From: Candidatus Latescibacterota bacterium | GTDB taxonomy: Bacteria; Latescibacterota; CBDEFO01 | Reading direction: 5' to 3' | DNA: 64,000 nt | NCBI GenBank assembly: GCA_965237525.1 | Contig: CBDEFO010000003.1 | Coordinates: 224,001-288,000, forward strand | Shown here: one piece after another, positions 2,330 to 58,616 of the stretch | Position numbering within the stretch: the stretch's first letter is position 1 | How the letters are laid out: each line of letters opens with the position of its first letter | The notes under the pieces: generated by a model | Databases searched by the model: none | What the model was told of the DNA's origin: nothing | Seen by the model: the letters and a program-made list of their open reading frames with translations, nothing else | Translations under genes and position numbers: made by a program

Positions 2330-2350
2330 TCCCGATTGAATCTATCGGGG
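2330..2350. repeat. 21-bp hairpin repeat (CCCCGAT-TGAATCT-ATCGGGG family), copy 1
   Basis: TCCCGATTGAATCTATCGGGG; related copies at 5983, 7878, 16186, 24441, 50784, 55409, 58333. Confidence 0.8.
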
Positions 2351-2401
2351 ATCAATATTGAATATAACAAGATAGATGATATAGAGTCAAGGGGATACTC
2401 A

Positions 2402-3877
2402 ATGTTGGAGATCTTCCAGTCGCTGTACGACATGGATAAGGAAACAGCAGTTCTTCTGGGCGTAGGGGTTTATATGTTGGGCATGCTTGGAGTGGGCTAT
2501 TACGCAAGCAGAAGGGTGGGAGATGCGGAGGACTTCATCGTGGCGGGCAGGAGACTCCCAACCTGGCTCTGCACGGCTACGCTCTTTGCAACCTGGTTTG
2601 GAGGTGGAACCGTCATGGGGGCGGCGGGGGCTGCGTACGAGAGGGGATTTTTGGGTGTGATAGCCGATCCTTTCGGTGCGGCCTTGTGTCTCTTTTTGGC
2701 GGGACTCTTCTTTGTAAAGACGATGAGGAGGATGAGAATCCTTACGGTGTCGGACTTCTTCGAGCAGAGGTTCGGCAGAGGGGCCAGCGTTATTTCGAGT
2801 CTATGTCTGGTAGCGGCTTACGTGGGATGGGTCGGGAGCCTCTTTGTGGCTATAGGGAAGATATCTGAAACTCTGATCGGTGTCTCGTCAGAGACGGGGA
2901 TAATAATAGGGACATTGATAGTACTTGTGTACACGACTGCTGGCGGGATGTGGGCTGTGTCGCTGACCGATCTTGTGCAGATAATCATAGTCCTTTTAGG
3001 ACTCTTTGCGGTATTTCCAATCGTAGTAAGCAAGGCGGGGGGATGGAGTGAGGCGTTCTCATCTGTCAGACCGGGGAGTTTTGATATGCTCCCACAGGGA
3101 GGTTTTAAAGAGTGGCTCTGGTACATCCAGGCCTGGATTGTGATAGGGTTCGGGAACATCCCTGGACAGGACCTCATGCAGCGGAGCCTTTCCGCAAGGG
3201 ATGAGAAAGTGGCTCAAAACAGCGCATATCTTTCGGGGGTATTGTATCTGACCGTAGGGATTATTCCCGTAGTCATAGGGATCATAAGCGTGAGTTTGAT
3301 ACCCCAGATAGATGACCCTGAGCATATAGTTCCAAGGATAGCTATGGAGTATCTTCCGACGTGGGCGATAGCCCTTTTCTTCGGAGCACTCATATCGGCC
3401 ATAATGAGCAGTGCGGACAGTGCGATTTTGGCTCCCTCAAGCATAATCGGCAAGAACGTACTGGGGTATTTCAAGCCGAATGCAGACGGCAGGGAAGTGC
3501 TTTTGTGGACGCGGGCTTCCATTCCGGTAATAGGCATTCTGTCCCTCTTTATAGCCCTGTATTTTGAGAATATATATCAACTCTTGATAGATTCCTTCTC
3601 TGTTCTATTAGTATCTCTTTTCGTGCCCATGGCTGCGGGAATATGGTGGAGAAAGGCAAATAGTACGGGAGCTCTAGCCAGCATGGGGGTCGGGTTGGTC
3701 TTCTGGATAGCCTTCAAATTCATAACTCCCCAACTGCCGTCGGACATATTCGGCGTAGCAGGTGCAGCTGTAGCTATGTTCGCAGTGGGGCTTCTGACTC
3801 AGAGGAGTTCTGTGCCCCTTCCTTTAGCAGACGCGGGAGGGAACGACATTGAAATGGAGGAGAGATTGGGGGTATGA
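2402..3877 (+). CDS. Sodium:solute symporter family (SLC5-like) transporter
   Basis: DFIVAGRRL, ATWFGGG, YTTAGGMWAVSLTD, SAIMSSADS motifs; many TM segments. Confidence 0.9.
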   Translation: MLEIFQSLYDMDKETAVLLGVGVYMLGMLGVGYYASRRVGDAEDFIVAGRRLPTWLCTATLFATWFGGGTVMGAAGAAYERGFLGVIADPFGAALCLFLAGLFFVKTMRRMRILTVSDFFEQRFGRGASVISSLCLVAAYVGWVGSLFVAIGKISETLIGVSSETGIIIGTLIVLVYTTAGGMWAVSLTDLVQIIIVLLGLFAVFPIVVSKAGGWSEAFSSVRPGSFDMLPQGGFKEWLWYIQAWIVIGFGNIPGQDLMQRSLSARDEKVAQNSAYLSGVLYLTVGIIPVVIGIISVSLIPQIDDPEHIVPRIAMEYLPTWAIALFFGALISAIMSSADSAILAPSSIIGKNVLGYFKPNADGREVLLWTRASIPVIGILSLFIALYFENIYQLLIDSFSVLLVSLFVPMAAGIWWRKANSTGALASMGVGLVFWIAFKFITPQLPSDIFGVAGAAVAMFAVGLLTQRSSVPLPLADAGGNDIEMEERLGV

Positions 3878-5046
3878 TAAAAGATATTACGCGCAGGGAT
3901 TTTTTCAAATCTGCTGCTCTCGGAACTGCATCCCTGACTCTGTACAGATTCGCCTGGGCACGTCCAGAGCAAGAGGCGATTTCGACTCCTGAGGGCTACG
4001 GACGAAAAAGGGCAAGGGAGCTGGGAATTGTGATCGGGACTATGCCCAGGGGAGAGTTCAATGCTATAACGGACGTGGAAGGAGTAAAGGTAGGACATTC
4101 TACCATACACGAAGGGGATGTCAGGACAGGAGTAACTGCTGTGATTCCCCACAGCGATGATATTTTCAGATACAATCTCTTTGCAGGCTGTCTGACATTG
4201 AACGGCAACGGTGAGATGACGGGGATGTCGAGGATAAGGAGGACGGGACTTTTGGGCTCTTTCGTCTTTACTACAAATACGTCCAGCGTGGGGATGGTTT
4301 ACGACGCCGCTTTGAAGTATTTTATGGAGAAATATCAGGGCACAAGGATTCCATCCCCAGTTGTAGCAGAGACATGGGACGGTTTTCTAAACGATATTGA
4401 GGGGAGGCACGTAGAGGAAGAACACGTCCTAGGGGCTATCAATAGTGCTCAATCGGGACGTGTGGGGGAGGGATGTGTGGGAGGTGGAACGGGGATGGTG
4501 TGCTACGGGTTCAAGGGGGGAATAGGGACTGCATCAAGGGTCATTAAGGAGGGATATACTGCAGGAGTATTAGTTCAGGCAAATCACGGCAGGAGACATC
4601 AATTGATTATAGACGGTGCTCCTGTAGGCAGGGAAATCACAGATCTTAAAGCGGAAAGGGGAGTGGGTCATAAGTCTATCATCGTAGTGGTTGCAACCGA
4701 CGCGCCGCTCTTGCCCGTTCAGCTGAATCGCCTGACAAAGAGGGCTGCACTGGGGCTCTCAAGGACGGGAGCGACCTCTATGCATTCAAGCGGGGACATA
4801 ATTTTAGCGTTTTCGACAGGGAATATAGTAGATGTTTATAATAGGTCTGAGGCATATGAATTTGAGGTATTGAATGATGAGGCGATAACTCCCCTTTATC
4901 AGGCGGTTGTGGAGGCGACCGAGGAGTCGGTAATCAACGCCCTTACGATGGCTCATACTACAGTGGGGAGACATGGGAATACTGTCTACGCTCTCCCTCT
5001 GGACAGGGTTGTGAAGATCATGAAGAGGCACGGGAAAATTAAGTAG
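3874..5046 (+). CDS. DmpA-like P1/S58 family aminopeptidase with twin-arginine signal
   Basis: TRRDFFK Tat motif; NAITDVEGVKVGH, TGVTAV, VGGGTGM, GFKGGIGTASR, SIIVVVATDAP, SGDIILAFST. Confidence 0.88.
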   Translation: MIKDITRRDFFKSAALGTASLTLYRFAWARPEQEAISTPEGYGRKRARELGIVIGTMPRGEFNAITDVEGVKVGHSTIHEGDVRTGVTAVIPHSDDIFRYNLFAGCLTLNGNGEMTGMSRIRRTGLLGSFVFTTNTSSVGMVYDAALKYFMEKYQGTRIPSPVVAETWDGFLNDIEGRHVEEEHVLGAINSAQSGRVGEGCVGGGTGMVCYGFKGGIGTASRVIKEGYTAGVLVQANHGRRHQLIIDGAPVGREITDLKAERGVGHKSIIVVVATDAPLLPVQLNRLTKRAALGLSRTGATSMHSSGDIILAFSTGNIVDVYNRSEAYEFEVLNDEAITPLYQAVVEATEESVINALTMAHTTVGRHGNTVYALPLDRVVKIMKRHGKIK

Positions 5047-5071
5047 ACAGTAGACAGCAAACAGTAGACAG
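5042..5071 (+). repeat. Heptamer tandem repeat (AGTAGAC)n
   Basis: AGTAGAC AGTAGAC AGCAAAC AGTAGAC; reverse-orientation copies at 6006-6024 and 9224-9253. Confidence 0.75.
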
Positions 5072-5225
5072 GGACTTCCCCTGCCCCTCCCTGACTACTG
5101 CCTTTTCGGGAGAACGTTAGCTGAAAATAGGAACGGCAGATAGCTTTGAGAGTCACAAGGATTAGGAGAAAATACCAAGGAACATTCCCAAGATGAACAT
5201 TCATAGACTATCGGAGACGTTCAGG

Positions 5226-5918
5226 ATGAAAACAGGTCTTGGTCAGATCCCCTTTTTATTCCTTATAGTATCTGCTCTGATCTTTGGAGGCTGTCTGGAG
5301 CTTATTAGAAAGAGACCGGATGATGACGAGGGGAAAAGGGAGGAGACAGTTAGGACAAAGGGACGTAAGGAGGAAAGTTCCGAAAAATCGACAGAGAGGA
5401 CAGAAGGAGATACAGGGGATAAAGAGTCCCACCGGACGCGATTCCCCTCTGCCGAGATAGTAAGTCCATCTGGAGATACGCTCGCTACAAAGATGGTCGA
5501 ACCAGAAGGGGAGATTCAACAAACGATCGCAGCACGGGTTGAAGCAGAAGATAAAAAGATGAACGCAGTATTATATTCCGTAGATCCCTCCAAAAAAAGG
5601 AGCGCTAAAGAGATAAATAAATACTCTTTTTGGTGCATAGACCAGGAGATGTGGAGCGAGGCAAAGGCACATCTGGAGAAGGCGGCAAAGTTGGACACGA
5701 CGTCGGCGAGTATCTATAACAATTTGGGCATAGTCTATGAGTACTTTCAGATGGAGCACGAGGCTCGCCGGGCCTATCAAACAGCCATGCGACTCGATTC
5801 CCGAAACGTTGTCTACAGGAGAAACTATATCCTCTTAAAAAGGAGTATAGGCTCAAAGGTAGCTGATGAACCTATGATTGAAGAAGAGAGTCTGGCTACC
5901 GAGCAGCCTGAGCAATAA
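5226..5918 (+). CDS. TPR-containing putative lipoprotein
   Basis: Hydrophobic N-terminus ending FGGC (lipobox-like); TPR-like AKAHLEKAAKLD..IYNNLGIVYE..AYQTAMRLD. Confidence 0.75.
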   Translation: MKTGLGQIPFLFLIVSALIFGGCLELIRKRPDDDEGKREETVRTKGRKEESSEKSTERTEGDTGDKESHRTRFPSAEIVSPSGDTLATKMVEPEGEIQQTIAARVEAEDKKMNAVLYSVDPSKKRSAKEINKYSFWCIDQEMWSEAKAHLEKAAKLDTTSASIYNNLGIVYEYFQMEHEARRAYQTAMRLDSRNVVYRRNYILLKRSIGSKVADEPMIEEESLATEQPEQ

Positions 5919-5923
5919 GACGC

Positions 5924-8900
5924 ATGACTTTGACGAGATACAGAAAGATGCCCTATACAGGGCGGAAGAGAATGCCCTGTCTCCCCCGATTGAATCTATC
6001 GGGGGCTACTGTCTACTGTCTACTTATGATAGCAGTTCTGGTTGTAGCGACTGCAGCGCCCGGGATCGTTAGGGCTCAGGACATTTTGTTATCACAGTTT
6101 TCTCAGAGCTTTGGAAAGAATAAGATTCAGTATAAGAATTTCCAGTGGTGGAAGTTGAAAACGGAGCATCTGGAAATCTACTACAATCCCGAGTATCTTG
6201 GCCTTGCCCTCTCAGCAGCAGAGATACTTGAGGATGGCTACGAGAAGATCAGCCGAAGCCTTCACCATGACCTTTCGACCGTTCCTCCGATCATTATCTT
6301 TCAGTCTCACTACGAGTTTGAACAGACGAATATAGTGCCCTATATCCTGCCTCCGGGCGTTGGCGGGTTCGCCGAGAGCCTGAAGTTTAGGGCCGTCATC
6401 CCGTTCAACGGAGACCTGGAGGATTTCAGGAGCGTTCTGGTCCATGAGTTGACTCATCTTTTTCAGTATGATATTCTGTACAAGGGGCCTGTAAAGTCCC
6501 TGACCAATAGAATCAATTCCCCGCCAACCTGGATCATGGAGGGGATGGCGCAGTACGAGGCGGGCGACATGAACGATGTGGATGAGATGGTGCTAAGAGA
6601 CGCTGTGCTGACGAATACTGTAATACCCATAAAGTCTTTGGACAATTTCCAGGCGGTAAGGAATGTGTTTTTAGCGTATAAACAGAGCCACTCTCTGATG
6701 CAGTATATATCGCAGGAGTACGGTGAGGATAAAGTTGGAAGAATCTTACGGGACTGGAAAGGGAGCACGGGAACAGGGCATACCATAAAAAGAGTCTTGG
6801 GTACGGACATTCAAACTTTAAGCGACAGTTGGTCTTCCCATGTGCGCAGAAAGTATTGGCCATTGCTCACCGAAAGGAAGTATAACTTCGAAATAGCAAA
6901 GGAAGTCCCGGCAGAAGAGGTTTCGTACTTAAGTCCAAGCGGGTCCCTTGGCGGGGAGATGTTGGCAGTCGTATCTACAGATGGTATTTCCTTCAATATT
7001 GACCTGATACGGGTAAAGGACGGAGAGCTGATGGAGCGAATAACAGAAGATATGAAGACTTCTGTCTATACAGATCTGAAGGTGGAAGAAGGTTGTGTGG
7101 CGTGGTCTCCTGACGGGCAGTACATAGCTTTCATAGCCAGAAAGGGACCTTCCGATTTGGTACTCGTGTGGAATGTCTATAGATCTGAGCTGATGGATGT
7201 GTTGAAGGTGGAAGGTGTTCAGGAAATATCCACCTTGGCCTGGGCGCCTGATAACAGGAAATTGGCATTTTCGGGTTCAAGCCGCGGCCAGACGGACATA
7301 TATATACTGGATATAAAGACAAAAGCTTCCACAAAGTTGATGCATACTGCCGATCGCGAGTCTCAGCCTTCGTGGTCTCCAGATGGGAGCAGACTTGCGT
7401 TCAGCTATAGGACCAACGGAAGTGTCGATCTTATGGTCTATGATTTTGAGCTGACAAAGGTGCAAAAGATAGTTTCTGGAAAGTCGGACGAGACCTGGCC
7501 CCGGTGGTTCCCTGACGGTGCAAGATTGCTTTTCGTATCGAACAGGGATGGCATAAATGATCTTTTTGTCTTGGACCTTGAAAGCAAAAAAGAAAGCAGA
7601 CTGACCAAGACTATAAGCGGACTCTCCAATCCGTCGATTTCTCCGGATGGAAAAAAGATAACGTTTGCCTCTTACTACAACGGTAGAAGGAAGATCTACG
7701 TGATGGATGTCCCATCACAAGAAGAGCTGGCCTTAACGGATGATGAAAAAGACGCGCAGAAATATGAGACACCTGCTGCAGACGGTGGTGAGATGATCTT
7801 ATCGCTGCACGTCAAGGAGGAAGAGAGCAATGGTGATTATGATAAGGTGAATGTAGATGATGATGGAGACCATGCATCCCCGATAGATTCAATCGGGGAT
7901 AGCCTGAAGGTAAGGACAAAGTACAAAAGGAGCAGATATAAACCGAGTCTTCAATTAGATGGAATCAGCGCTCAGCTGTCCTTATCTAACAACTTCTTCG
8001 GCACTGTAGCCCAGATTTCGTTCAGCGATCTTATGGGAAATCATAACCTGGGAATAACGACGGATTTCGTCTCAGGGTTTACAAGCTATGGAAGGCTTAA
8101 TGACCTCAACTTTGCGGTCATATATGGATATTACGGAAGGAGGACGAACTTAGACTTCGGGATCTTCAGCTGGACGCAATATTTCACAGATTCTAAGAGT
8201 CGCTTCTTGGATTTGAGGACCGGCAGGTTGATGCGTGCTCTGGGGTCCGACAGGCAGTCCGGGCTATTTGCAAGGATGACCTATCCGATAGATCTATATC
8301 GGAGAGTGGAATTTAAATATACGTTTGTGGATCAGAACAGGGAATTTGTGTTCCCGGAGAAGGAGAGGATTGAAAAGAAAACCACGCATCTTTTCCAGAC
8401 TGTCTATGTAAACGACTCCGTAGAGTACGGTTGGCTGGGGCCTTCAAGGGGCAAGAGGTTCTACCTCTCCGCCGGTCAGGCGGTAAAGTTCACAGAGGGC
8501 CACAGGCAATTTACCCATCTGGACGCGGACTTAAGGTTCTACGCCGGCAGGAACTCCGTCTTTGCTTTCAGACTCAAGGGACTCGCATCTTTAGCAAAGG
8601 ACGGTATAACGCACTTTCTGGGCGGTCCAAACATAGCCACGATTTTTGGATTCGGACACGAGGTGAACGTTGGGCCTCTGAGGGGCTTTGATTTCAGCGA
8701 GTTAGCAGGGACCAGGTTATTTCTTATGAACATGGAGTACAGAGTTCCCTTTGTGAGGAATCTGACGCTCGGATGGCCCGGGAATATCTCTCTTGGAGGT
8801 CTGATGGGCACAGTCTTTACAGATGTGGGGGTGGTCTGGAATGAGGGCGACGATGTAAAGCTATGGACGACGGACGGAGAATTCAGACTCAAGGACCTGA

Positions 8901-9028
8901 AGATGAGCATGGGCTTGGGTATTATAGTAAACTTCATCCTGCCCATAAATATCGAGTTTGCAAAGGAGACAGATCTAAGAAGATTCTTCGACAGAGAGAC
9001 ACACTTCAGCTTTGGATTGAGTTTTTAA
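5924..9028 (+). CDS. Omp85/BamA-TamA-family barrel protein with N-terminal gluzincin-like peptidase and PD40/TolB-like propeller
   Basis: HELTH...WIMEGMAQY; repeated WSPDG/PD40 motifs; PLRGF, EYRVP, FTDVG and C-terminal FSFGLSF; start uncertain. Confidence 0.8.
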   Translation: MTLTRYRKMPYTGRKRMPCLPRLNLSGATVYCLLMIAVLVVATAAPGIVRAQDILLSQFSQSFGKNKIQYKNFQWWKLKTEHLEIYYNPEYLGLALSAAEILEDGYEKISRSLHHDLSTVPPIIIFQSHYEFEQTNIVPYILPPGVGGFAESLKFRAVIPFNGDLEDFRSVLVHELTHLFQYDILYKGPVKSLTNRINSPPTWIMEGMAQYEAGDMNDVDEMVLRDAVLTNTVIPIKSLDNFQAVRNVFLAYKQSHSLMQYISQEYGEDKVGRILRDWKGSTGTGHTIKRVLGTDIQTLSDSWSSHVRRKYWPLLTERKYNFEIAKEVPAEEVSYLSPSGSLGGEMLAVVSTDGISFNIDLIRVKDGELMERITEDMKTSVYTDLKVEEGCVAWSPDGQYIAFIARKGPSDLVLVWNVYRSELMDVLKVEGVQEISTLAWAPDNRKLAFSGSSRGQTDIYILDIKTKASTKLMHTADRESQPSWSPDGSRLAFSYRTNGSVDLMVYDFELTKVQKIVSGKSDETWPRWFPDGARLLFVSNRDGINDLFVLDLESKKESRLTKTISGLSNPSISPDGKKITFASYYNGRRKIYVMDVPSQEELALTDDEKDAQKYETPAADGGEMILSLHVKEEESNGDYDKVNVDDDGDHASPIDSIGDSLKVRTKYKRSRYKPSLQLDGISAQLSLSNNFFGTVAQISFSDLMGNHNLGITTDFVSGFTSYGRLNDLNFAVIYGYYGRRTNLDFGIFSWTQYFTDSKSRFLDLRTGRLMRALGSDRQSGLFARMTYPIDLYRRVEFKYTFVDQNREFVFPEKERIEKKTTHLFQTVYVNDSVEYGWLGPSRGKRFYLSAGQAVKFTEGHRQFTHLDADLRFYAGRNSVFAFRLKGLASLAKDGITHFLGGPNIATIFGFGHEVNVGPLRGFDFSELAGTRLFLMNMEYRVPFVRNLTLGWPGNISLGGLMGTVFTDVGVVWNEGDDVKLWTTDGEFRLKDLKMSMGLGIIVNFILPINIEFAKETDLRRFFDRETHFSFGLSF

Positions 9029-9042
9029 GGTACATTGTCTTC

Positions 9043-9153
9043 GTAGAGGCTCGGGACCCCCTGATTTGGTAGAACAGACATTGTTGTCTGTTCTACAGTC
9101 AGACAGGAATGTCTGACCCACCATACATTTTGGGCAAAGGAACCTCGCCCCTG
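9043..9153. repeat. Cluster of GTAG-type REP-like palindromes
   Basis: GTAGAACAGACATTGTTGTCTGTTCTAC and GTCAGACAGGAATGTCTGAC palindromes in the intergenic region. Confidence 0.55.
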
Positions 9154-9187
9154 TATGTAGAGGTTACGACAAAGGGAATGATGAACT

Positions 9188-9919
9188 GTGAAACTTATGT
9201 TTAAGGGGAGGGGAGGATATGCCCTGTTTGCTGTCTACTGTCTACTGTCTACTATATTTTGGGGCTGTGCAGGCAGCAAGGAACCAAAAGGAGTCAAGCT
9301 GGTCACCTTCAACACAGGCTATTCCTCTGAGGTAAATCTGAGCAACATCCAGAGCCTTGGCGTGATATCTGTAGTAAATGTAAAGCCCAGAGGGCAGATA
9401 GACATAGACAAGATACGCAACAAGATATCTGACGAGGTAGCTTCCAGCTTGAGGCAGCTCGAGATCAAAACGATAATAGAGCACGATGAGATAGAATGGG
9501 TGTTCAGGGGCATGAAGGTAGATTCGTCGGCGGTCAGGAACGTTAGGAATTTGCGGAGGCTGCACGACGAACTGAAGATGGACGGTCTGGTTCTTGTGGA
9601 GATCGACCATATGGACGCTGCTCTTCGACAAAGGTTCGTTCCGGCAAGAGACAGATACGGAAGAGTATACCCCCAAGCAGTTCCGGGAATTGCTATGCAC
9701 GTAGTATTAAAGTTCGATATTTTAAACACACAGACGGGAGGGAGTATCTGGCAAAAGGAATTCAGACGTTCGAGGTTCCAGCCGATAGTGCTTCAGCTTT
9801 TCGGAGGCGGCGCGGAGAGCCAGATCGTTTCGACTATCAGACCCGCGGTAAGGGACTTCATATCCCGGCTGGCTCCGCTTCGGCAAGGCAAGATAAGGGG
9901 ATTTGTCATTCCGTATTAG
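9188..9919 (+). CDS. Putative lipoprotein (possible CsgG/LpoB-like fold)
   Basis: Lipobox-like FWGC; DGLVLVEI and LNTQTGGSIW resemble CsgG/LpoB-type strands; fold call is tentative. Confidence 0.6.
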   Translation: MKLMFKGRGGYALFAVYCLLSTIFWGCAGSKEPKGVKLVTFNTGYSSEVNLSNIQSLGVISVVNVKPRGQIDIDKIRNKISDEVASSLRQLEIKTIIEHDEIEWVFRGMKVDSSAVRNVRNLRRLHDELKMDGLVLVEIDHMDAALRQRFVPARDRYGRVYPQAVPGIAMHVVLKFDILNTQTGGSIWQKEFRRSRFQPIVLQLFGGGAESQIVSTIRPAVRDFISRLAPLRQGKIRGFVIPY

Positions 9920-10057
9920 AAATATCACGCCCTACAGCGCCTATTTTCTTACTAACACTATATGGAGTGATTGCCAAAACAATCGAGAATAGAGTTAATC
10001 CGAATTCCACTTCCAATCCAGGCCAATAACAGCGGCCACAAAACTCAGGATGGAGCC

Positions 10058-10819
10058 GTGAAGCTTAAGGAAAAAGTCGCAATCGTAACCGCGTCGGGTG
10101 AAGGTATAGGTCGTGCCATTGCAGCCGCTTTTGCCAGAGAAGGAGCATCGGTAGCCGTAATTGATATCGATAGGGAGGCCGCGCAATCAGCAGTTAGTGA
10201 GATAGCGTCATCCGGAGGCCACGCAATAAGCATCTACGCCGATGTGACTAAGAGTGAGGATGTAAACGGGATGGTTCAACAAGTCATAGGGGAATTTGAG
10301 AGAGTCGATATCCTCGTCAATAATGCGGGTGGGAGTGCCAGGGCGGAGGCATCACTATTCATCGACTCGAAAGAAGAGGTCTGGGACAAGATAATAGCCC
10401 TGAACCTCAAGAGTGCCCTACTATGCACCCACGCCGTCCTCAAGGATATGATGAAAAGGAAGAAGGGCAAGATTATCAACTTATCATCAGAAGCCGGCAT
10501 AGAAGGCAGCTGGGGGCTGGTGGACTACGCTGCTACGAAGGCCGCGATAATTGGTTTCACAAGGGCTCTGGCCAGAGAGGTTGGACCCCACGGCATCAAC
10601 GTAAACTGCATCGCCCCGGGAGTTATCGAAACGCCCGCTGTCATGGAAGTTGAGAATCCCCACTACAAATCGCATCGTAAACGCGGCCATGAAAGGAAGA
10701 TCATACGGCGATTAGGAAAGCCGGAAGAAGTCGCAGCCCCCGCAGTCTATCTAGCCTCAGACGAAAGCGACTACGTAATCGGAGAGACGATCAGGGTTGA
10801 TGGTGGAATAGGATATTAG
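10058..10819 (+). CDS. SDR family oxidoreductase (FabG-like)
   Basis: VTASGEGIG, DILVNNAG, YAATK, VNCIAPG, VDGG. Confidence 0.9.
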   Translation: MKLKEKVAIVTASGEGIGRAIAAAFAREGASVAVIDIDREAAQSAVSEIASSGGHAISIYADVTKSEDVNGMVQQVIGEFERVDILVNNAGGSARAEASLFIDSKEEVWDKIIALNLKSALLCTHAVLKDMMKRKKGKIINLSSEAGIEGSWGLVDYAATKAAIIGFTRALAREVGPHGINVNCIAPGVIETPAVMEVENPHYKSHRKRGHERKIIRRLGKPEEVAAPAVYLASDESDYVIGETIRVDGGIGY

Positions 10820-10835
10820 CCCGTGTATAAACTAA

Positions 10836-10991
10836 GCTTGACGCCGTGTGGCAGTGTTTGATCACATGCTTCTCTTGGCAGTGGGTCAGACAGGATTGTC
10901 ACTGGAAGGTTTCCTCACCATAGCGTTCACCTCCTGCCGCCTAAGATACTACAGAACTAATAATAGGGCAATACTAAGAGGAGTGACTACC
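10836..10991 (-). pseudogene. Possible degenerate IS1-like end with InsA zinc-ribbon fragment
   Basis: GGTAGTCACTC end on minus strand, AGGAGG SD, ATG at 10921 giving MVRKPSSDNPV then (with indel) CQEKHVIKH-HT; weak. Confidence 0.3.
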
Positions 10992-11085
10992 TAGCCGCAA
11001 ACTTTCCCCGCGAATCTTATAGTCAATTGAAGATAGGTGCAGTAAAGTCTTCCGTCAAAAATGTATCTGTTCTTGTAGTACATAG

Positions 11086-11114
11086 TTGACACTCTATCAC
11101 GAATTCCTTATATT
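11086..11114 (+). promoter_or_regulatory. Sigma70-like promoter
   Basis: TTGACA-17nt-TATATT upstream of the 11227 gene. Confidence 0.55.
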
Positions 11115-11226
11115 ACTTCATATCTGTCTCTCGCAACTCTACTTGAAATAATCGGCAAGGCTGCAGGCGAGGTTCCGTGCCATCCGTGTTACGATCGGTA
11201 AGAACACGACTGCTCAAGGCGAAAGA

Positions 11227-11631
11227 ATGTACAGACGCTTTCTGACTACTCTCGCGATAATATCTTTGATCCTTTACACTGGATGCTCTCAGACAAGGCC
11301 GATAAAGACGGTCGATTCGATTTTACCAGAAGATATAAAAGAGGGTGAGGAAGCCAAGATTATCCTCAAGGATCGGACCACAGCCGAGGGCACGATTATC
11401 TCCTCGAATGAAGATGAGATAACCCTCAAAATTGTGTATCAAGATTACGAAAAAGGCGGGAAAAGAGCAAAGTTCATATCTTACAGATGGGATGAGATCG
11501 CAAGAGTCGAATCCAATTCACAGGAGGAAAAGACCAGAAGCAGCCTTCGCGTGGCGGCGATAATGACCGGTATTGTAATAGGTACCGGTTTTCTGCTTTT
11601 GGGACTCATAACAGATGCCCTGTCCAATTGA
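11227..11631 (+). CDS. Hypothetical lipoprotein with C-terminal hydrophobic segment
   Basis: Lipobox-like YTGC; C-terminal hydrophobic helix. Confidence 0.7.
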   Translation: MYRRFLTTLAIISLILYTGCSQTRPIKTVDSILPEDIKEGEEAKIILKDRTTAEGTIISSNEDEITLKIVYQDYEKGGKRAKFISYRWDEIARVESNSQEEKTRSSLRVAAIMTGIVIGTGFLLLGLITDALSN

Positions 11632-11735
11632 TTGAGCTCTTTAAGTAAGAATCTCCAAAAGTGCGACAGCAAATAGTCCTGATGCCTGAAGAATCCTTTG
11701 TGCTGAATTAATACTGAAGAAGGACTACACCAAAC

Positions 11736-12356
11736 ATGAAGGTCAACAAAAAGGGAGTGGCTTTCTTGATTTCGGGGATGTGCAGCCCGTTTATCCTGCT
11801 CTTTCTGACCTCAATCCCTATAGTCTATCTGCATACATCTTCCCTCGGTCCCTTTCTGCTGTTCTTCTTTTTGACTCTTGTCTTTGTAATTATGGTTCCT
11901 CTGGCTTCTATTGTTATGCTGTTCGTAAAGGGGAAGATAACGAGCATACACATTATGGATAAAGGTGAACGCAAGCTCCCCTTTGTAGTGGCGATCTTAA
12001 GCGTGTGCCTCGGTCTGGGGTCTTTTTATCTTTTCGATGCTCCGCTTGAGCTTATCGTTTTGGCTATTACATTTATAGCTAATGGTATTGTTCTGGCGGC
12101 GATCACACCCTTTTGGAAAGTGAGCCTGCACGTAGCCGCGGCGACGTGCTGTTTTACAGCGGTGACCGTGTTCTGCGGATGGAAGATGTCTTTTTCGTTT
12201 CTTGCTCTTCCTCTCATATCGTGGGCGAGGATCTCGAGAGGGAGGCACAATCTTGCGCAGTCGCTGGGAGCAGTTTTGGCCTCACTGGTAGTGACGATTT
12301 TGATGTTCTATATATTCCTGCCCGATTATATACACAGGCTGTTGTCTTTCCAGTAG
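11736..12356 (+). CDS. PAP2-superfamily-like membrane protein
   Basis: Multiple TM helices; WKVSLH and WARISRGRH motifs. Confidence 0.7.
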   Translation: MKVNKKGVAFLISGMCSPFILLFLTSIPIVYLHTSSLGPFLLFFFLTLVFVIMVPLASIVMLFVKGKITSIHIMDKGERKLPFVVAILSVCLGLGSFYLFDAPLELIVLAITFIANGIVLAAITPFWKVSLHVAAATCCFTAVTVFCGWKMSFSFLALPLISWARISRGRHNLAQSLGAVLASLVVTILMFYIFLPDYIHRLLSFQ

Positions 12357-12539
12357 CAACGAATGATATACGGGGATGATCTGTTTGGACGATCTAAAAT
12401 CGTGGCTGACCCTATTGAACATTAAGGGTGTGATAAGACTAATAAATCTCTATTAAAATGTGTAAATATGGCTCATGCAGTTATGGATCCTGAGCTTTTA
12501 GTTCAAACTATCCATGGGGTAAAAAATAGATAAGAAAGA

Positions 12540-14696: not shown

Positions 14697-14721
14697 ACCT
14701 TCTTATTTTAAGTGATGCGAC

Positions 14722-14759: not shown

Positions 14760-14789
14760 TCTAACTGAATCTGGCCGATGAAGTTATTG

Positions 14790-16174: not shown

Positions 16175-16222
16175 GAGATTGCTTCCCCCCGATAGATTCA
16201 ATCGGGGGTCGCTCGCAATGAC
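16175..16222. repeat. GAGATTGCTTC...TCGCAATGAC REP-like element containing the 21-bp hairpin
   Basis: GAGATTGCTTC CCCCCGATAGATTCAATCGGGGG TCGCTCGCAATGAC; related elements at 55394-55492. Confidence 0.65.
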
Positions 16223-24287: not shown

Positions 24288-24461
24288 GTAGCCACTGGGC
24301 GACTGTCAAAGAGATGGTCGCCCTTTTTCCTATGCTCAACCATTATCCTCGCACTACAGAGTCGTTGCAGTTTGATACATACTTGCCAAGGAGGCTTGAA
24401 ATGCGAGGGACAATTTTACACATTTCCCTGGCGCTGTTGTCCCCGATTGAATCTATCAGGG

Positions 24462-24683
24462 ATCAACCTCCTGCTCCTTCGGATCCTTGCGACCACGCCG
24501 AGACTTCAGGCTCTCCTGGCCTCCTTCTAAGAAACTATCACGCCAAGCATACGCCTGCTACTGGCTGATTCCATTCTTCCGACATACTTCCGATACATCC
24601 ACTCCTTTCAAAAGAGTCAGCACCACCTCTGCCTTTCGGGTCACCGTCCAGCGCTTACTATCTTTCACTTCGGGGCTTGACAC
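24462..24683 (-). pseudogene. IS3-family OrfA-like transposase remnant
   Basis: Manual translation from GTG 24683 (SD AGGAGG): MSSPEVKDSKRWTVTRKAEVVLTLLKGVDVSEVCRKNGISQ*QAYAWRDSFLEGGQESLKSR. Confidence 0.65.
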
Positions 24684-25345
24684 TTTGACCTCCTTTCCCC
24701 GATAGTATCACTCGGGGACAAGCCTCAAACCCCAATTTGCAAAATATTTGTCGCTCTGTCAAGGGGAGCGGTATGCCGCAGCGTCTTCTACTGTAAGAAG
24801 ATACGATGCCGATGGCAGCAAAAAGACGACTTTCGGCAGAGTTTCGGCACCTTCGCCAAAAACAAGAGGATCAAAATGAAGTCCCACTTCGCGATCGAAG
24901 TAAAGAGCGTCCTCATTCATGCCCCTAACTTTTGCTTCGGTACATCCATGAGCAAATTGGAAGTATTGTTTAACTTCCTCAGTTCCTGGCATGTATCAGA
25001 AAGTTTTCCTGGGCTGATGTGAAAAACTTACTACAAAAGTTATGATCCAGCGGAGGAAGACACTCTTTGTTAATGTTGAAAGACCGGTTAAGTTCTCTGG
25101 GTGGGACATATGGAAAGGATTTAATCTTGTTAGAAACAGAAGACTTTTCCTTGTTATCTGCTCAAGGATTTAGTATATTAGTACGTATCACCTATGAGCA
25201 AGGTAGAAATATCTGGAGGAGGATTTACGTGAAAAAGTTTGTGGTATTCCCTCTTAGTGGACATGGAACCCTGCCGGCCTCATTTACTATTCATGAAGAG
25301 CAGTTAATTCTACTTGCTGAAGAAGAAAAGAAAACAGTCGAATCC

Positions 25346-50195: not shown

Positions 50196-51827
50196 ATGAA
50201 GAAGATCACAGCTTTCCATATATTCGCGATCGTTCTTACAGTATTCTTCTGCGCCGTAAGATACATCAGATTTCAGGAGCCTATGGGACTTGACCAGGGT
50301 CTCTTTGCCTACTTCGGAAGACATATCCTCACCGGCAGTGTCCCCTACTTAGACATCTGGGACAGCAAACCTCCCGGTATATTCTATATATACTCCATCA
50401 GCTTTGCGCTCCTCGGCGACTCCTTCTTCAGCGTGTATCTTATCGAGACCCTCTTTTTGGCCCTCACGGCCCTTTTGATCTACCTTCTGTGCGCAGAAGT
50501 TTTCGATAAGAAAGTCGCCCTATTTGCCGCGGCCATCTACGTTCTCTTTTCCAACGCTCCTATATTCGACGGATTCTGGTCCACAGCACAGGCTGAGGTC
50601 TTCATGAACTTGCCCATAGTCGCAAGCCTCTACATCCTCACCAAGAACTTAAGGAGATGGCACTTTTTCGCCTCTGGGGTTCTTCTCGGACTGTCAGTGA
50701 TGTTCAAACTTACCGCCCTATTCCTGCTACCCTCTTTTATCCTGTATCTCTACCTGTCCTTCAAAGACAAATCCCCGATTGAACCCCCAATAGATTCAAT
50801 TGGGGGTCGGGATAGGATTCACAGGTACACATATTTCGGCATCGGACTTATCATCCCTCTACCCATCTGTGCCTTCTACTTCTGGATGCAGGGAGCCCTC
50901 GACGATATGATTTACACACTTGTCTCTTACAGCTACCGCTACTCGCAAGCCATAACCCAGGGACAGCCTTTTCTCAAGACTTCCCTTGGACAGTTCATAA
51001 GGTTTGTCATTTTCAACCCCACAGTATCCATTTTATCCCTCGTCGGACTTATATATCTCCTTGTAAAAAGACGTTCTAAAGAAACGTATCTTTTAATATC
51101 CTATCTTGTGCTATCCTTTATTTCGGTCTGGGCGCAAAGACAGTTTGCAGGGTACCACTTCATCGTGCTCTCGCCTCCGCTTGCCGTCATCTGCGGCAGT
51201 GCATGCCCCTTTATATTCAACTGGATAGTCCGAAGCACAAGCTCTATCATCCGCAAAAGATCCTTAGAGACTCTGCTCAGGTCATCTGCAGCTATTATAA
51301 CAGTAGTATTACTAGCCTTTTTTCTTTACACGGAGATGTCCCGTTATTATCGGTACTACAGACCGGACATCTCCTACGCTCGTGGAAGGATATCCCCAAG
51401 GGAATATCTAAAGACTTTCGACACGGGAGCAATATCCTTTCTGAATAACAGCTCTGTCGCTGACTATATAAGAGATAGGACCGATAGTGACGACTATGTC
51501 CTGGTATGGGGATTAGCCCCCGCTATCTATTATCTGTCAGACAGAAAATCTCCCACAAAATACGTCTTCCACCACGTTCTGTTGACCGACGCTCCGCTGT
51601 CCCGGCAACTTGGGGGTCTTGAGGGAAGGAGAAAAGAATTTTTGGAAAAGGTAACCGACAGCAAGCCCCGTTACATCGTCATAGGCATCAACGACAGGAA
51701 CGGCTTTGAGCCGCAGGACTCCGACACTCAGCTTCTCAATTTCAAAGAGTTCAAGGACTATGTCTTTACAAACTACGATAGAGAGAAGAGAATCGGGAAT
51801 TTCATCCTTGTGAGGAGAAAGGAGTAA
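50196..51827 (+). CDS. ArnT/GT39-like integral membrane glycosyltransferase
   Basis: DQGLFAY, PYLDIWDSKPPG, AQAEVF; many TM helices. Confidence 0.82.
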   Translation: MKKITAFHIFAIVLTVFFCAVRYIRFQEPMGLDQGLFAYFGRHILTGSVPYLDIWDSKPPGIFYIYSISFALLGDSFFSVYLIETLFLALTALLIYLLCAEVFDKKVALFAAAIYVLFSNAPIFDGFWSTAQAEVFMNLPIVASLYILTKNLRRWHFFASGVLLGLSVMFKLTALFLLPSFILYLYLSFKDKSPIEPPIDSIGGRDRIHRYTYFGIGLIIPLPICAFYFWMQGALDDMIYTLVSYSYRYSQAITQGQPFLKTSLGQFIRFVIFNPTVSILSLVGLIYLLVKRRSKETYLLISYLVLSFISVWAQRQFAGYHFIVLSPPLAVICGSACPFIFNWIVRSTSSIIRKRSLETLLRSSAAIITVVLLAFFLYTEMSRYYRYYRPDISYARGRISPREYLKTFDTGAISFLNNSSVADYIRDRTDSDDYVLVWGLAPAIYYLSDRKSPTKYVFHHVLLTDAPLSRQLGGLEGRRKEFLEKVTDSKPRYIVIGINDRNGFEPQDSDTQLLNFKEFKDYVFTNYDREKRIGNFILVRRKE

Positions 51828-52538: not shown

Positions 52539-53642
52539 ATGGACACAATCCAAATACCGGTGATCGAGGTGCGCCAGAATATTGGAGAACTATATGTCGG
52601 TGCTATGAAAGCCCATGATCTATATGCTATAGCTAAGGTGGATCGCATTAGATTGGAATCCATGAAGATACCGAAGTATGCAGGATTCCAACGCCCTCTT
52701 GTTCAAGATCGGATAAGCGCCATCCGAGATTACCTGGACACACCACGATGTACCTTCCCAAACGCGATTATCCTATCTTTGGATTCGGAGTACATTGAGA
52801 ATTGGGAAGATGTTCAGGGCGGCTCGAATGTGAGTACGTTGAATGTTCGGCGAGAAGAGGGAGCAGCGAAAATCATCGATGGCCAGCACCGTTCTGCAGC
52901 GCTTGATGCTTCTCAACAAGGATTTGAGGTGATCGTATCGATCTTTGTAGATCTTGAAATGGGACGAAGTGCTGAAATCTTTTCTAAAATTAACAGTACG
53001 CAAAAGGCCGTAAATCCCTCTATTGCCTTCCAATTGTTTGGATATGCAGAAGATCGCAGTCCGCAACGCACTGCGCATGAAATAGCAGAGATATTCAATA
53101 CCACCGAAGGATCACCTTTCTATAAGCGTCTTAGGATGCTAGGAACCAAGGATAATTGGTCGATGGGAGGAACTCTTAGTCAATCGACTTTCTGCAAGGA
53201 ACTGATGAGGTTGTACACAAGAGATCCAACACGAGATGAGAACCGTCTTTTACGTAAAGAGAAATTAGACACCTATTCAGATTATCCCTTCCGAGACTGG
53301 TTTATAGAAAGTAATGATCAGAAAATCCTGGAAACAGTATGGAGGTTTTTCGTCCGCATCGCTAATACGTGGCCAGAGCAGTGGTGGGATAAAGGAGGTG
53401 AATCAAACCTTACAAAAACAACAGGGTATGCAGCATTCATACAGATTCTAAGAATATGGCTTTTGAATGGTTCACAAGCTAATCAAGTTCTAGAAGATAA
53501 CGGAGTTGAAGAACTATTTAAGAGAATTAAGGAAAAGTACGAGAGTCCTCAACATCGGTTTGTTAGTAAGAATTACCGTGCCGGTAACGAAGGTGTAGTG
53601 AATCTACGCGACGCCCTTGTTAAAGACCTTAAAGTGAAATAG
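52539..53642 (+). CDS. DGQHR domain protein (DndB/DpdB-related)
   Basis: GFQRPL, FPNAIIL, IIDGQHR, IFSKINSTQKAV. Confidence 0.9.
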   Translation: MDTIQIPVIEVRQNIGELYVGAMKAHDLYAIAKVDRIRLESMKIPKYAGFQRPLVQDRISAIRDYLDTPRCTFPNAIILSLDSEYIENWEDVQGGSNVSTLNVRREEGAAKIIDGQHRSAALDASQQGFEVIVSIFVDLEMGRSAEIFSKINSTQKAVNPSIAFQLFGYAEDRSPQRTAHEIAEIFNTTEGSPFYKRLRMLGTKDNWSMGGTLSQSTFCKELMRLYTRDPTRDENRLLRKEKLDTYSDYPFRDWFIESNDQKILETVWRFFVRIANTWPEQWWDKGGESNLTKTTGYAAFIQILRIWLLNGSQANQVLEDNGVEELFKRIKEKYESPQHRFVSKNYRAGNEGVVNLRDALVKDLKVK

Positions 53643-53648
53643 ATTATA

Positions 53649-54500
53649 ATGTTAAAGCCTTTACTAAAGTGGCCAGGAGGAAAACGCTGGCTTGCTGCGA
53701 AAATTGTGCCTCACCTAGAAGGTACCTTTAAAAGATACATTGAACCTTTTTTTGGAGGGGGTGCGGTTTTGTTTGCACTTGAACCGCCCCGAGGATTGGC
53801 ATCGGATACAAATGGTGATTTAATCGACTGTTACCAGGCGATTAGGAAAGAAGGACACCGCGTACTGTGTGAACTCAACAAACTGCAGTGCATAAAGAGC
53901 GAGTATTACCGCATCCGTGATAGTTGGAACCCCCAGTGTGAGTTCCAACGTGCGTCTCGTCTTATTTACCTTTTGCGACACTCTTGGAATGGACTGTACC
54001 GCGTCAATAAAAAGGGTCGTTTCAATGTGCCATATTGCCCACGTGAGCGAAAGGATAGGCTTACAAGAGAGATGATGACCGGTGTCCAATCAATATTGCA
54101 GCGGGTTAGCTTAGAGTGTCAGGATTTCGAACAAGCTATTGCAAAAGCAGAAAAAGGTGACTTGATATTTGCAGACCCACCTTACTTCGAGAATGGTAAC
54201 ACAAAATTTGGAAATTATAGTTCAATTTCTTTTCAAGAAGAAGATCAAGAGCGTCTTGCAAAAGCCCTTACCACAGCAGAACGTAGAGGCGCCGCTTGGA
54301 TCCTTACCGATGGATGTTTTGAGCAGGTTCGGACCCATTTCTTAGGGCATGATATATTCGTTGTACCTCGTCAGTCTGTCATCGCTGCAGATCCAAAGTA
54401 TCGGAAGAGGATTTCTGAATATGTTGTGCTCTCCAGAGGAAGTGAACTCGGAAAGCTACGCCAATTTCTTGCCGAGAACTATAAACTGGTTTCCAACTGA
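53649..54500 (+). CDS. Dam-family (D12 class) DNA adenine methyltransferase
   Basis: KWPGGK, YIEPFFGGGA, YRVNKKGRFNVP, FADPPY. Confidence 0.92.
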   Translation: MLKPLLKWPGGKRWLAAKIVPHLEGTFKRYIEPFFGGGAVLFALEPPRGLASDTNGDLIDCYQAIRKEGHRVLCELNKLQCIKSEYYRIRDSWNPQCEFQRASRLIYLLRHSWNGLYRVNKKGRFNVPYCPRERKDRLTREMMTGVQSILQRVSLECQDFEQAIAKAEKGDLIFADPPYFENGNTKFGNYSSISFQEEDQERLAKALTTAERRGAAWILTDGCFEQVRTHFLGHDIFVVPRQSVIAADPKYRKRISEYVVLSRGSELGKLRQFLAENYKLVSN

Positions 54501-55393: not shown

Positions 55394-55492
55394 GAGATTG
55401 CTTGGCTGCCCCCGATTAAATCGGGGGTCGCAACGACAGTATCCGTCTTTGGCTTTCAGTCATTGCGAGGGGAAAAGCCCCGAAGCAATCTC
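55394..55492. repeat. Inverted pair of GAGATTGCTT...GCAAYGAC REP-like elements
   Basis: GAGATTGCTT..CCCCCGATTAAATCGGGGG..TCGCAACGAC and GTCATTGCGA..GAAGCAATCTC. Confidence 0.7.
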
Positions 55493-55738: not shown

Positions 55739-55783
55739 TTAGCAAACCGATAAAGAGTCCTCACATATCGGAAATATACGAAG

Positions 55784-57277: not shown

Positions 57278-57283
57278 AGATCG

Positions 57284-58243
57284 TTATGCTCGCTGGTCAG
57301 CCGTGTACACATCTACCGTCTCCACAGGGCGGAATTTTCTCTTAAACTGTTTTAAGCCAGCACTCCCCAAATCGCTCGCATCGTTTATAAGCTCGAACTT
57401 TCTCATTTCACTAAAGAAACAATATCTCGTATATTCTGAAAGTCCTTTTATGTCCAGATCGCACTTCGAGACAAAGAAATTAGCCATCCCAGCCCACATC
57501 CTTCCCCCCATCCAGAATCCCCTTATCTTCCCATCTATCTCGGCAACCCACCCGGAAAGATCTGGAACTTTTGCATAATACTCTAAAGCGGATCTCGTGT
57601 AAGCCCAGTCCAAGAGCCTCAGTGAACGTCCCTCTCTCCCATGTCTTTTAGCCTTTCTCCATGCACGCATAATTTCCATGCACCCGTCCACATCTTCTTT
57701 CCTCATCTTTCTACATAGGACTTTATATTCCTTTTCAGTGCGACGTATTCGCTTCCTCAGGTCCCTGTAAGGGCTCCCTTCCATCCCCACAATCTTCTTT
57801 GGGTCATATATATACTCCGCCTCCTTCCACCTGAGATAGCAGACGCCCATCTTATCCATCGCCACTTTGTCACACCTGTCCACCCACAAGATTCTCCCCT
57901 CTTTATCTCCGTTAAAAGAGTTCATCAACTCTGTGCACTGCACAAGAGCACTATCTGAAAAGGGCAGGGGAGGGAAAAACATATTCATCCTGACGCCCTC
58001 AGGTCTGTGATTTACCACAAAGACACAGAGACACCCGCTTATCTTCATCCAGAATATGTCTCTTGAGGGGGAGGCCCCGTAACAGAAGATAAACGGAAAG
58101 TAGTAACACCAGGTCTTCTTCCGATTCTCGCTAAATGCCTCTATGAACAGATCCGCATCCTCAAGCGTCAGGCGCTTTAGCCGTGTCTCAAAGCGGACTA
58201 TTTTACTATCTGCAGTAAGAAGGGGACTATCCGCGCTCTGCAT
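57284..58243 (-). CDS. DUF2156 / phosphatidylglycerol lysyltransferase-like GNAT-fold protein
   Basis: EYIYD..GSPYRDLRKRIR, KCDLDIKGL, INDASDLGSAGLKQFKRKFRP. Confidence 0.8.
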   Translation of the reverse strand: MQSADSPLLTADSKIVRFETRLKRLTLEDADLFIEAFSENRKKTWCYYFPFIFCYGASPSRDIFWMKISGCLCVFVVNHRPEGVRMNMFFPPLPFSDSALVQCTELMNSFNGDKEGRILWVDRCDKVAMDKMGVCYLRWKEAEYIYDPKKIVGMEGSPYRDLRKRIRRTEKEYKVLCRKMRKEDVDGCMEIMRAWRKAKRHGREGRSLRLLDWAYTRSALEYYAKVPDLSGWVAEIDGKIRGFWMGGRMWAGMANFFVSKCDLDIKGLSEYTRYCFFSEMRKFELINDASDLGSAGLKQFKRKFRPVETVDVYTADQRA

Positions 58244-58616
58244 CGAACAACCTCGTCCTTGAAGGCTTCAGCTCCTTCTTCAGATGATCTACAATTACCG
58301 AACTGTCCATCCCACCTGGTGGCTTGCTGCCGCCCCTGAAAGAATCATTCGGGGACTGCTCGTCCCTCCCGTCACAGGACAGAATGTCCACAGCCATAAA
58401 TCCCTCCTCAGCCCAGGTGTGGACGCTCACGTGCGACTCGGAGATCATGACATATCCGCTGAATCCGTAAGGCTCAAACTGATGAAAGTGATAGTGCACG
58501 ATCTTGGCCCCTGAAAGCTTCACAGCCTCTATCAGCACGCTCTTTACAGGCTCTACCTGCTTCAAGAGTTCTATGTTATCAAACCACATATCCAAAAGGA
58601 TGTGGCTCCTTGTCAT
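58227..58616 (-). CDS. speD: S-adenosylmethionine decarboxylase proenzyme
   Basis: FHQFEPYGFSG, ISESHVSVHTW (E|S cleavage site), DILSC. Confidence 0.9.
   Translation of the reverse strand: MTRSHILLDMWFDNIELLKQVEPVKSVLIEAVKLSGAKIVHYHFHQFEPYGFSGYVMISESHVSVHTWAEEGFMAVDILSCDGRDEQSPNDSFRGGSKPPGGMDSSVIVDHLKKELKPSRTRLFDAERG

Follow-up and report, generated by a model that had tools for sequence, protein, structure and literature searches.

The 64,000-nt stretch analysed here (the window; positions 224,001 to 288,000 of contig CBDEFO010000003.1, assembly GCA_965237525.1) comes from a Candidatus Latescibacterota bacterium and carries nine copies of a short hairpin, which represents a real and recently active family of mobile micro-elements. 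An earlier first-pass annotation of the window, made from its letters, had described the hairpin as a minimal mobile palindrome, and this is borne out by pairs of filled and empty sites, both between two genomes of the same genus and among paralogous sequences. All eight copies that it listed were verified with starts exact or shifted by 1 nt (2330, 5984, 7878, 16187, 24441, 50785, 55410 and 58334), and the ninth, at 24697, had been overlooked.

The window's own assembly (G000) comprises 4.58 Mb in 8 contigs, and the comparison genome from the same genus (G001) is a single contig of 4.54 Mb, 2.8 Mb of which was compared with G000; across the syntenic blocks of the window the identity is mostly 88-95%. 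At up to 0, 1, 2, 3 and 4 mismatches, G000 contains 117, 313, 464, 552 and 603 copies of the hairpin, respectively, while an order-5 Markov copy of the same genome has no match within 3 mismatches and just 2 within 4, so that the genome-wide motif count proposed earlier as a check is far beyond chance expectation. The 603 copies fall into 517 independent flank clusters, the biggest of which (37, 10 and 10 copies) consist of hairpins carried along in larger repeats, and the spacing between copies has a median of 3,650 nt and a lower quartile of 1,225 nt. G001 holds 360 copies at no more than one mismatch, and other hairpins of G000 are much rarer than this one. An assembly artefact was ruled out, because most of the window copies are also present in the single-contig G001. 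Searches of the 64-kb window against Rfam and of viral contigs for the hairpin returned no match.

Orthologous G001 sites could be compared for 216 uniquely flanked G000 copies, and 30 of these sites are empty; in the reverse comparison 42 of 231 G001 copies are empty in G000; a few of these 'empty' cases are decayed copies or bigger deletions, the listed net changes ranging from -83 to +91. Orthologue and paralogue pairs in which both flanks were anchored (at least 18 of 21 matches) and the net change was 10-32 nt yielded 70 site families, with net sizes of +18 (8 families), +19 (21), +20 (10), +21 (6), +24 to +26 (5), +27 (17) and other values (3). The 45 families at +18 to +21 correspond to a 23-nt unit replacing target bases, usually about 4 of them. 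In the +19 class, filled and empty sites mismatch in 38% of cases at position -1, in 48% at +1 and in 14% at +/-2, as compared with 0-8% for shared copies; the unit is therefore 23 nt long and replaces 4 nt. The +20 class is compatible with either 24 nt replacing 4 or 23 nt replacing 3. Empty sites usually hold 2-5 bases that are absent from the filled sites, often centred on CG, the same bases as the first and last of the core; by hand count, 10 of 20 non-nested +19/+20 events have a target centred on CG (about 5% expected; p = 2e-8). The empty alleles are ancestral, and precise deletion is ruled out as their source, since they contain bases missing from the filled alleles and leave repeats or reading frames whole. 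Clean insertions were also found in unique genes and spacers, with no more than 1-3 nt of homology.

Structure, covariation and nesting of the 23-nt unit

The unit is 23 nt long and consists of a 21-nt core between Y and R, which form an outer base pair that covaries. Intact copies fold into a stem of 8-9 bp with a 7-nt loop (fold z of -3.5 to -5), and the copies at 2330, 24441 and 58334 are decayed by the same analysis. The outer pair, -1/+1, lies just outside the consensus recognized earlier and covaries most strongly of all (T-A in 288 copies, C-G in 183, T-G in 44 and C-A in 33); one step beyond it, the 603 copies give no pairing signal. At stem pair 5/17, compensatory variants are A-T in 32 of 603 copies (Fisher p = 2e-33) and T-A in 9, and for the eight aligned window copies the covariation score was reached by none of 500 shuffles. 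The stem covariation claimed by the first-pass annotation is thus real at pair 5/17, although the outer pair had been missed and its example at 58333 is unsupported: the change, at pair 7/15, is a singleton among the 603 copies (p = 1), and the same copy has another stem pair broken (fold z -1.4).

Copies that have settled decay. Between G000 and G001, the stem, loop and flanks of 115 shared copies have diverged by 4.2%, 3.2% and 5.3%, respectively, and their stem pairs show 63 single changes versus 2 double changes. As the stem decays near the flank rate after insertion, any structural selection works on moving rather than on staying, and the compensatory variants are accordingly best read as inherited from still-mobile donors, although this last step is inferred.

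Two subfamilies can be distinguished. Part of the +27 class carries a 5' tail, G-C(C/T)-TG, and tends to insert cleanly as 27 nt, and a handful of other +27 events resemble 23 nt plus a 4-nt duplication. The tail is linked to a base other than T (A, G or C) at stem position 7, which is found in 33 of 54 left-tailed copies versus 40 of 526 untailed ones.

The hairpin also inserts into itself and into other repeats. Nested arrangements occur in 71 of the 517 flank clusters; ten of the 21 +19 events are nests, and in each of them an identical set of 4 bases is lost from the loop. The inserted copy is opposite in orientation in 7 of these and runs the same way in 3; this amounts to re-insertion at one fixed spot in the hairpin's own loop in either orientation. 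By eye, roughly 20 of the 32 copies with the A5/T17 compensatory variant are inner copies of nests; such copies may survive better by breaking the direct repeat with the outer copy. When the hairpin itself, GTAG-type repetitive extragenic palindromes (REPs), the CGTC-type repeat and the heptamer array are counted as neighbours, 309 of 499 intergenic copies (62%) lie within 30 nt of another repeat motif versus 11% of 5000 random intergenic points; 69 of the 499 adjoin heptamers versus 1.5% of the random points. Nearby copies share non-consensus loops slightly more often than others (9 of 80 within 300 nt and 42 of 650 at 2-10 kb, against a background of 2.9%), a comparison that is confounded by local duplication.

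Copies within genes and copies of the window

With our own gene caller, used instead of a standard annotator, G000 has 3,946 genes and is about 80% coding. The 603 copies are nevertheless mostly intergenic (489), with 26 across a gene end and 88 in called genes, 47 of the latter more than 40 codons from both gene ends; the initial description of the hairpin as found inside coding sequences therefore applies to a small minority. Copies within genes are read in the four stop-free frames (PIESIG, PRLNLSG, PIDSIG and PDRFNRG) and never in the two that contain a stop. Polymorphic in-gene events measure +18, +21, +27 or +33, multiples of three in 9 of 9 cases versus 25 of 63 elsewhere (p = 6e-4): in-gene copies are frame-preserving survivors. 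A mainly peptide-adding element in the manner of the Rickettsia palindromic elements (RPEs), as first proposed, is not supported by these data, as the hairpin avoids genes and a frameshift results from its commonest insertion sizes (+19 and +20; 31 of 70 families). Copies are oriented without bias with respect to transcription (192 versus 176) and without a pattern with respect to GC skew, and they are not in excess between convergent genes (58 of 496).

In the window (Table 1), the placement in intact open reading frames (ORFs) stands for the copies at 7878 (Omp85-domain protein), 50785 (PMT_2/GT39-like protein) and 58334 (speD). The copy at 2330 likely lies upstream of a gene, about 50-70 nt ahead of the likely start of an SSF symporter gene, and four others (16187, 24441, 24697 and 55410) are intergenic. 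The copy at 5984, assigned earlier to the 5' region of the Omp85 gene, is indeed in frame with the N-terminus of the Omp85-domain ORF (PRLNLSG), but it is translated only if an upstream ATG is used as the start codon. That peptides have been added to proteins is supported for two of these genes: the loop of the GT39-like protein is about 13-16 aa longer than in 10 non-carrier homologues (taken from the best 12 of 50 matches, the other 2 being from carriers), and in SpeD the copy falls in a stretch of 23 residues versus 6 in the best solved AdoMetDC homologues (about 17 aa longer). The linker of the Omp85-domain protein is poorly conserved and unalignable among 8 homologues from other genera, and the size of the insertion is therefore unreadable there. 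G001 has a nested version of the copy at 7878, 15 nt longer and in frame; conversely, the nest in its GT39-like gene is represented by just one decayed single copy, 18 nt shorter. Contigs of four sequencing runs over window positions 1500-17500 contributed no new empty site among the matches listed. The tailed copy at 24697 sits in a repeat of about 310 bp (24466-24776), and its empty paralogues define a clean +27 insertion.

Table 1. Copies of the hairpin in the window, and candidate enzyme genes elsewhere in G000
Feature	Position	Strand	Remarks
23-nt unit	2329..2351	+	core 2330-2350, one C>T change; site shared by G001, with consensus base
23-nt unit	5983..6005	+	perfect core 5984-6004; adjoins CTACTGT heptamers; also in G001
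23-nt unit	7877..7899	-	perfect core 7878-7898; linker of Omp85-domain protein, peptide SPIDSIGD
23-nt unit	16186..16208	-	perfect core 16187-16207; intergenic; within CGTC-type repeat (GTCATTGCGAG...GAAGCAATCTC); also in G001
23-nt unit	24440..24462	+	core 24441-24461, one stem-breaking change; intergenic; consensus in G001
Tailed copy, 27-nt class	24696..24723	-	GCTTGT tail and core 24697-24717; intergenic
40-nt nested composite	50773..50812		PMT_2/GT39-like gene; outer copy split by inner A5/T17 copy (core 50785-50805, - strand, compensatory)
Short-loop variant	55409..55427		17-nt core 55410-55426; intergenic; 17 exact copies across G000
Decayed 23-nt copy	58333..58355	-	core 58334-58354; in speD; also in G001
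RAYT gene, open frame	G000:C8:1476118-1476648		flanked by GTAG-type REPs, one REP inside the gene; hairpin copy 69 nt downstream
Small Ssn-type GIY-YIG gene	G000:C4:479893-480114 (L177)		between two ordinary NTS-like motifs

The unnamed repeat at 24466-24776 has about 14 copies with TGTCAAG-like termini, most of which carry the tailed hairpin. The window also contains an IS1182/IS5-like transposase (43887-45287) and a member of an IS481-like family (22985-24290), which apparently has 53 members in G000; transposase-like ORFs with a near-identical N-terminus form a group of 165 members at 80% identity or more in G000, with a median length of 451 aa. A DndB-like gene is followed by a D12-class adenine methyltransferase (52539-54500), and speD adjoins a gene with a BpsA (branched-chain polyamine synthase) domain (58227-59656), the branched-chain polyamine pathway being found mainly in thermophiles. 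Across G000, CTAG occurs far less often than expected (observed/expected 0.27), and many 6-bp palindromes likewise fall short of expectation.

Relatives elsewhere, candidate enzymes and possible mechanisms of spread

The hairpin is absent from all 39 other genomes of the phylum that were searched. A scan of species genomes gave at least 56 loci, 44 of them on one chromosome titled Candidatus Latescibacterota and 10 in metagenome-assembled genomes (MAGs) titled Deltaproteobacteria; the matches listed also include one Thermodesulfobacteriota and one Nanoarchaeia contig. The Nanoarchaeia-titled copy (L171) lies beside transposase-like fragments on a 3.5-kb MAG contig, for which mis-binning is possible. 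Among 61 genomes around the richest carrier, G041, a degenerate form is present in 16. A metagenome scan gave at least 96 loci, some at 59-65% GC, and the identical 21-mer occurs in distant lineages. Three loci (L281, L283 and L286) have the exact 21-mer immediately beside Ribosomal_S2 and NusG/L11 genes but not within them; their contigs have a GC content of 63-65%, well above the 37-49% of most other carriers.

In 30 metagenome loci chosen for the A/G variant, a GCCTG(C/T) tail precedes 17 of 35 copies and a YGTCAT tag precedes 5. The same stem-loop with a TGTCAT tag sits in Deltaproteobacteria-titled genomes, where it is a regular CGTC-type repeat arranged in head-to-head doublets (G075 has 46 matches, G050 has 11 and G047 has 9). 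Two tagged doublets in G075 bracket a small Ssn-type GIY-YIG gene, the same arrangement as the NTS-ssnA-NTS layout described in parts of PMC11893778, and the 5' tail and the TGTCA tag fill the same five positions ahead of the Y-core. We infer from this correspondence that the hairpin probably descends from the stem-loop of a tagged CGTC/Ssn-related repeat. Weighing against such a descent, the tagged form has no match in G069 and G079, yet both carry the tailed form; the GIY-YIG gene of G075 is frameshifted near its GIY motif in the assembly; and the direction is not fixed, as the change may have gone from tagged to free or from free into tagged. Within the right-hand tagged repeat beside this gene there is a second tailed micro-hairpin with a different core (L351; G075:C12:17600-18400).

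As the first-pass annotation had it, no mobilising enzyme is evident in the window; G000, however, holds elsewhere both a REP-associated tyrosine transposase (RAYT) and an Ssn-type GIY-YIG gene (Table 1). The check suggested earlier, for a RAYT or GIY-YIG gene flanked by the hairpin, came out negative in G000, since neither gene has the hairpin as its own end motif. Among the other carriers, G079 has an Ssn gene whose frame is open (C74). The RAYT was found by a six-frame motif scan, its matches to Pfam Y1_Tnp (21.3 bits; cut-off 23) and to NCBIfam being below the cut-offs; it is subclass 2.4-like judging from its in-gene REP and is missing from the syntenic region of G001, and the hairpin near it sits inside the downstream GTAG REP. 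Genes of G000 flanked on both sides by the hairpin are, as judged by eye, ordinary host genes, with no small nuclease among them. Clustering and inspection by eye of 375 ORFs within 500 nt of copies in other genomes revealed no recurring nuclease or transposase family; a few of the ORFs are transposase-like. A search of five genomes for reverse transcriptases gave two pieces in G001, a single one in G042 and nothing in G000, G041 or G045; a route through RNA is unsupported but conceivable.

The reading that we prefer, while judging the case for it evenly poised, is that of a tiny mobile hairpin that is not autonomous: nucleases acting in trans would open nicks or breaks, into which it would be copied with the help of host repair, usually in place of about 4 bases. 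A cut through one or both strands, within or close to a resident hairpin repeat, would yield a 3' end, which would anneal to a donor copy through 1-3 nt of microhomology, or through longer homology in repeats and in the element itself; copying would then run through the donor hairpin and rejoin a few bases further along, host repair sealing the junction. The favoured cutters would be Ssn-type GIY-YIG nucleases, with RAYT as the alternative; passages of PMC11893778 report that the cut made by Ssn in single-stranded DNA falls a few nt upstream of motifs of this type. Copies might subsequently multiply passively within larger repeats and insertion sequence (IS) elements, and in genes only those would persist whose net length change is divisible by three and affects a loop or linker. 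Tentatively, this can be narrowed further: an Ssn-cognate (CGTC/SRM) stem-loop may have broken free as a transposase-less 23-nt replicon, which an Ssn-type single-strand nuclease would cut and host repair would paste over about 4 bases. The imprecise junctions and symmetric orientations favour repair over a dedicated transposase, and the clean 27-nt class favours the opposite.

A number of observations weigh against trans cutting followed by repair. No enzyme is tied to the free form of the hairpin: the Ssn gene of G000 is flanked by ordinary NTS-like motifs and not by the free hairpin, none of the 603 G000 copies fits the published SRM pattern, and G001 gave no match to either Ssn or RAYT despite its 42 private copies. 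Ssn matches are lacking in G041 and occur, among the genomes around it, in 8 of 16 carriers versus 10 of 45 non-carriers (as for RAYT below, these genomes are incomplete and related, so that the counts are not independent), and Ssn is present in 15 of the 39 same-phylum non-carriers. The same passages of PMC11893778 report Ssn to cut, not to move, DNA, and repair copying alone does not account for the sharp 27-nt class. Finally, gene conversion from a single older insertion may account for the events in nests and in repeats, 4 of the 7 opposite-orientation nests having the same rare A5/T17 inner copy. As regards the enzymes missing at present, GTAG REPs are also polymorphic between G000 and G001 (8 of 26 and 13 of 26 absent), and present-day absence therefore says little about the past.

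For the same reason the lack of a RAYT in G001 is not decisive against the view that the hairpin is a REP-like substrate of a Y1/HUH transposase (RAYT), in which the 5' tail would act as the guide tetranucleotide, the 27-nt form would move by peel-and-paste without target duplication, and the 23-nt form would result when a second strand transfer takes place a few bases from the first. In its clean +27 insertions, with a tetranucleotide on the 5' side of the stem, the hairpin is similar to the anatomy of IS200/IS605 and REPs as presented in parts of PMC6006769; where the hairpin targets itself the centre is CT/AG, and according to sections of PMC8266576 it is at C|T that TnpA_REP cuts; G000 has an open RAYT frame with a copy close downstream; and around G041, RAYT matches occur in 5 of 16 carriers versus 1 of 45 non-carriers, although kin are not independent. 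We nonetheless find this view rather doubtful, because the G000 RAYT is bounded by GTAG-type REPs, in one of which the hairpin is a passenger; only 1 of 11 RAYT loci has the hairpin, inside a GTAG REP; this RAYT type is present in 17 of the 39 element-free genomes of the phylum; there is no systematic GTAG tag (61 of 603 copies); and no strand asymmetry was seen, both orientations replacing the same 4 bases.

Spread without any dedicated cutter, by template switching and gene conversion among repeats and by hitch-hiking in IS elements and repeats resembling miniature inverted-repeat transposable elements (MITEs), appears unlikely. It would account for the proximity of most intergenic copies to other repeat motifs, for the large flank clusters, for composites that appear to convert single copies and for the failure of any nuclease or transposase family to recur near copies elsewhere. 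It sits poorly with the 517 independent flank clusters, with clean insertions into unique genes and spacers at 1-3 nt of homology or less, with the sharp boundaries and the identical 21-mer in distant lineages, and with the far lower abundance of other G000 hairpins. That the host selects the hairpin for a function, be it as a terminator, a protein-binding site, an uptake sequence or a peptide module, with ordinary mutation behind its gains and losses, would explain the high copy number, the stable fold of intact copies and the slightly lower divergence of stem and loop than of flanks, but is highly improbable for a unit that is present or absent as a whole, shows no strand or context preference, accumulates single stem-breaking changes over double ones (63 to 2), is lacking in 39 of 39 other same-phylum genomes and is read in four different frames in genes.

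Comparison with known repeats and implications

Small dispersed repeats (SDRs) of Nostocaceae, attributed to Elhai et al. 2008, are reportedly hairpins of about 21-27 nt that are dispersed, carry compensatory changes and nest in themselves, in heptamer arrays and in mini-transposons. The hairpin described here works like these SDRs: it is about 20-27 nt long (23- and 27-nt forms) and dispersed, its hairpin is compensatory at pairs -1/+1 and 5/17, it nests in itself, in heptamer arrays and in larger repeats, it marks sites of insertion and deletion, and it has no known mobiliser. We do not claim SDR membership, the likeness drawn here being one of features. The hosts differ, SDR-like repeats being reported, in the portions of the literature covered, only from Nostocaceae among HIP1-rich cyanobacteria, and the hairpin has a traceable link to an Ssn-flanking motif. 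SDRs are given as 'some 20 bp' in a passage of PMC2884548 and are also treated in passages of PMC5861425. In an extract of PMC4390886, SDR5 inserts precisely into HIP1 without loss of target; many of the +27 events are likewise precise, whereas 45 of 70 families lose target bases.

CGTC REPs and the NTS and SRM motifs, as outlined in parts of PMC3733652 and PMC11893778, share the stem-loop in its TGTCAT-tagged form, doublets of which bracket the frameshifted GIY-YIG gene of G075. The free form in G000, by contrast, does not flank the Ssn gene; it is without the YGTC tag and the CCA tail that mark this class together with AT at the foot of the stem (the tag in 1 of 603 copies), stands as single copies rather than doublets, has a loop of 7-9 nt versus 4-5, and inserts into CGTC repeats rather than making them up. 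Like the GTAG REPs and REPINs of PMC3116915, PMC6006769 and PMC8266576, in the sections seen, it is a short, mainly intergenic, high-copy palindrome with some in-frame copies, and its tailed form has a 5' tetranucleotide at the foot of the stem. It differs from GTAG REPs in that GT(A/G)G lies within 1-3 nt of either end in just 61 of 603 copies, the commonest 5' flanks being other motifs, and in that it targets REP loops and is not the end motif of the resident RAYT. It differs from REPINs, too, in that the moving unit is a single hairpin and not an inverted doublet, as the median spacing illustrates. MITEs, put at 70-300 bp with terminal inverted repeats in part of PMC3733652, are longer than these 23-27 nt. 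MITEs also duplicate their target, and duplication-like junctions of the hairpin occur in a handful of the 17 +27 families while most families lose target bases. With RPEs the hairpin has in common that in-frame copies lengthen loops of working-looking proteins, but it is much shorter, its commonest insertion sizes shift the frame, and few copies (47 of 603) lie deep in genes.

RPE-1 measures about 150 nt. A full-text literature search with the 21-mer, its reverse complement and related strings gave no match, although figures and supplements, such as the CGTC consensus figure and the SRM tables, could list the motif.

How repeats of 20-30 nt spread is an open question: CGTC REPs are said in passages of PMC3733652 to have no transposase of their own, and passages of PMC3116915 do not settle where SDRs come from. 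The present family offers material with which this can be tested: the unit is defined (23 nt), its junctions follow a rule (about 4 bases replaced, frequently around CG), its target within itself is fixed, filled and empty sites are paired in 70 cases, and the genome also encodes two candidate enzymes that can be named. New here are the rule for the junctions, the division into two subfamilies, the filter on reading frame and the connection with a motif that flanks Ssn. In annotating carrier genomes, gene callers can be led astray by the hairpin peptides and by false gene starts. If a transposase-less replicon of the kind tentatively outlined above does exist, it would give CGTC repeats and SDR-like elements a missing route of spread and would explain the letter-identical 21-mer in distant bacterial lineages. 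As for the proteins of the hosts, the family shows how tiny insertions that shift the frame can, once selection has sifted them, leave short peptides of foreign origin in loops.

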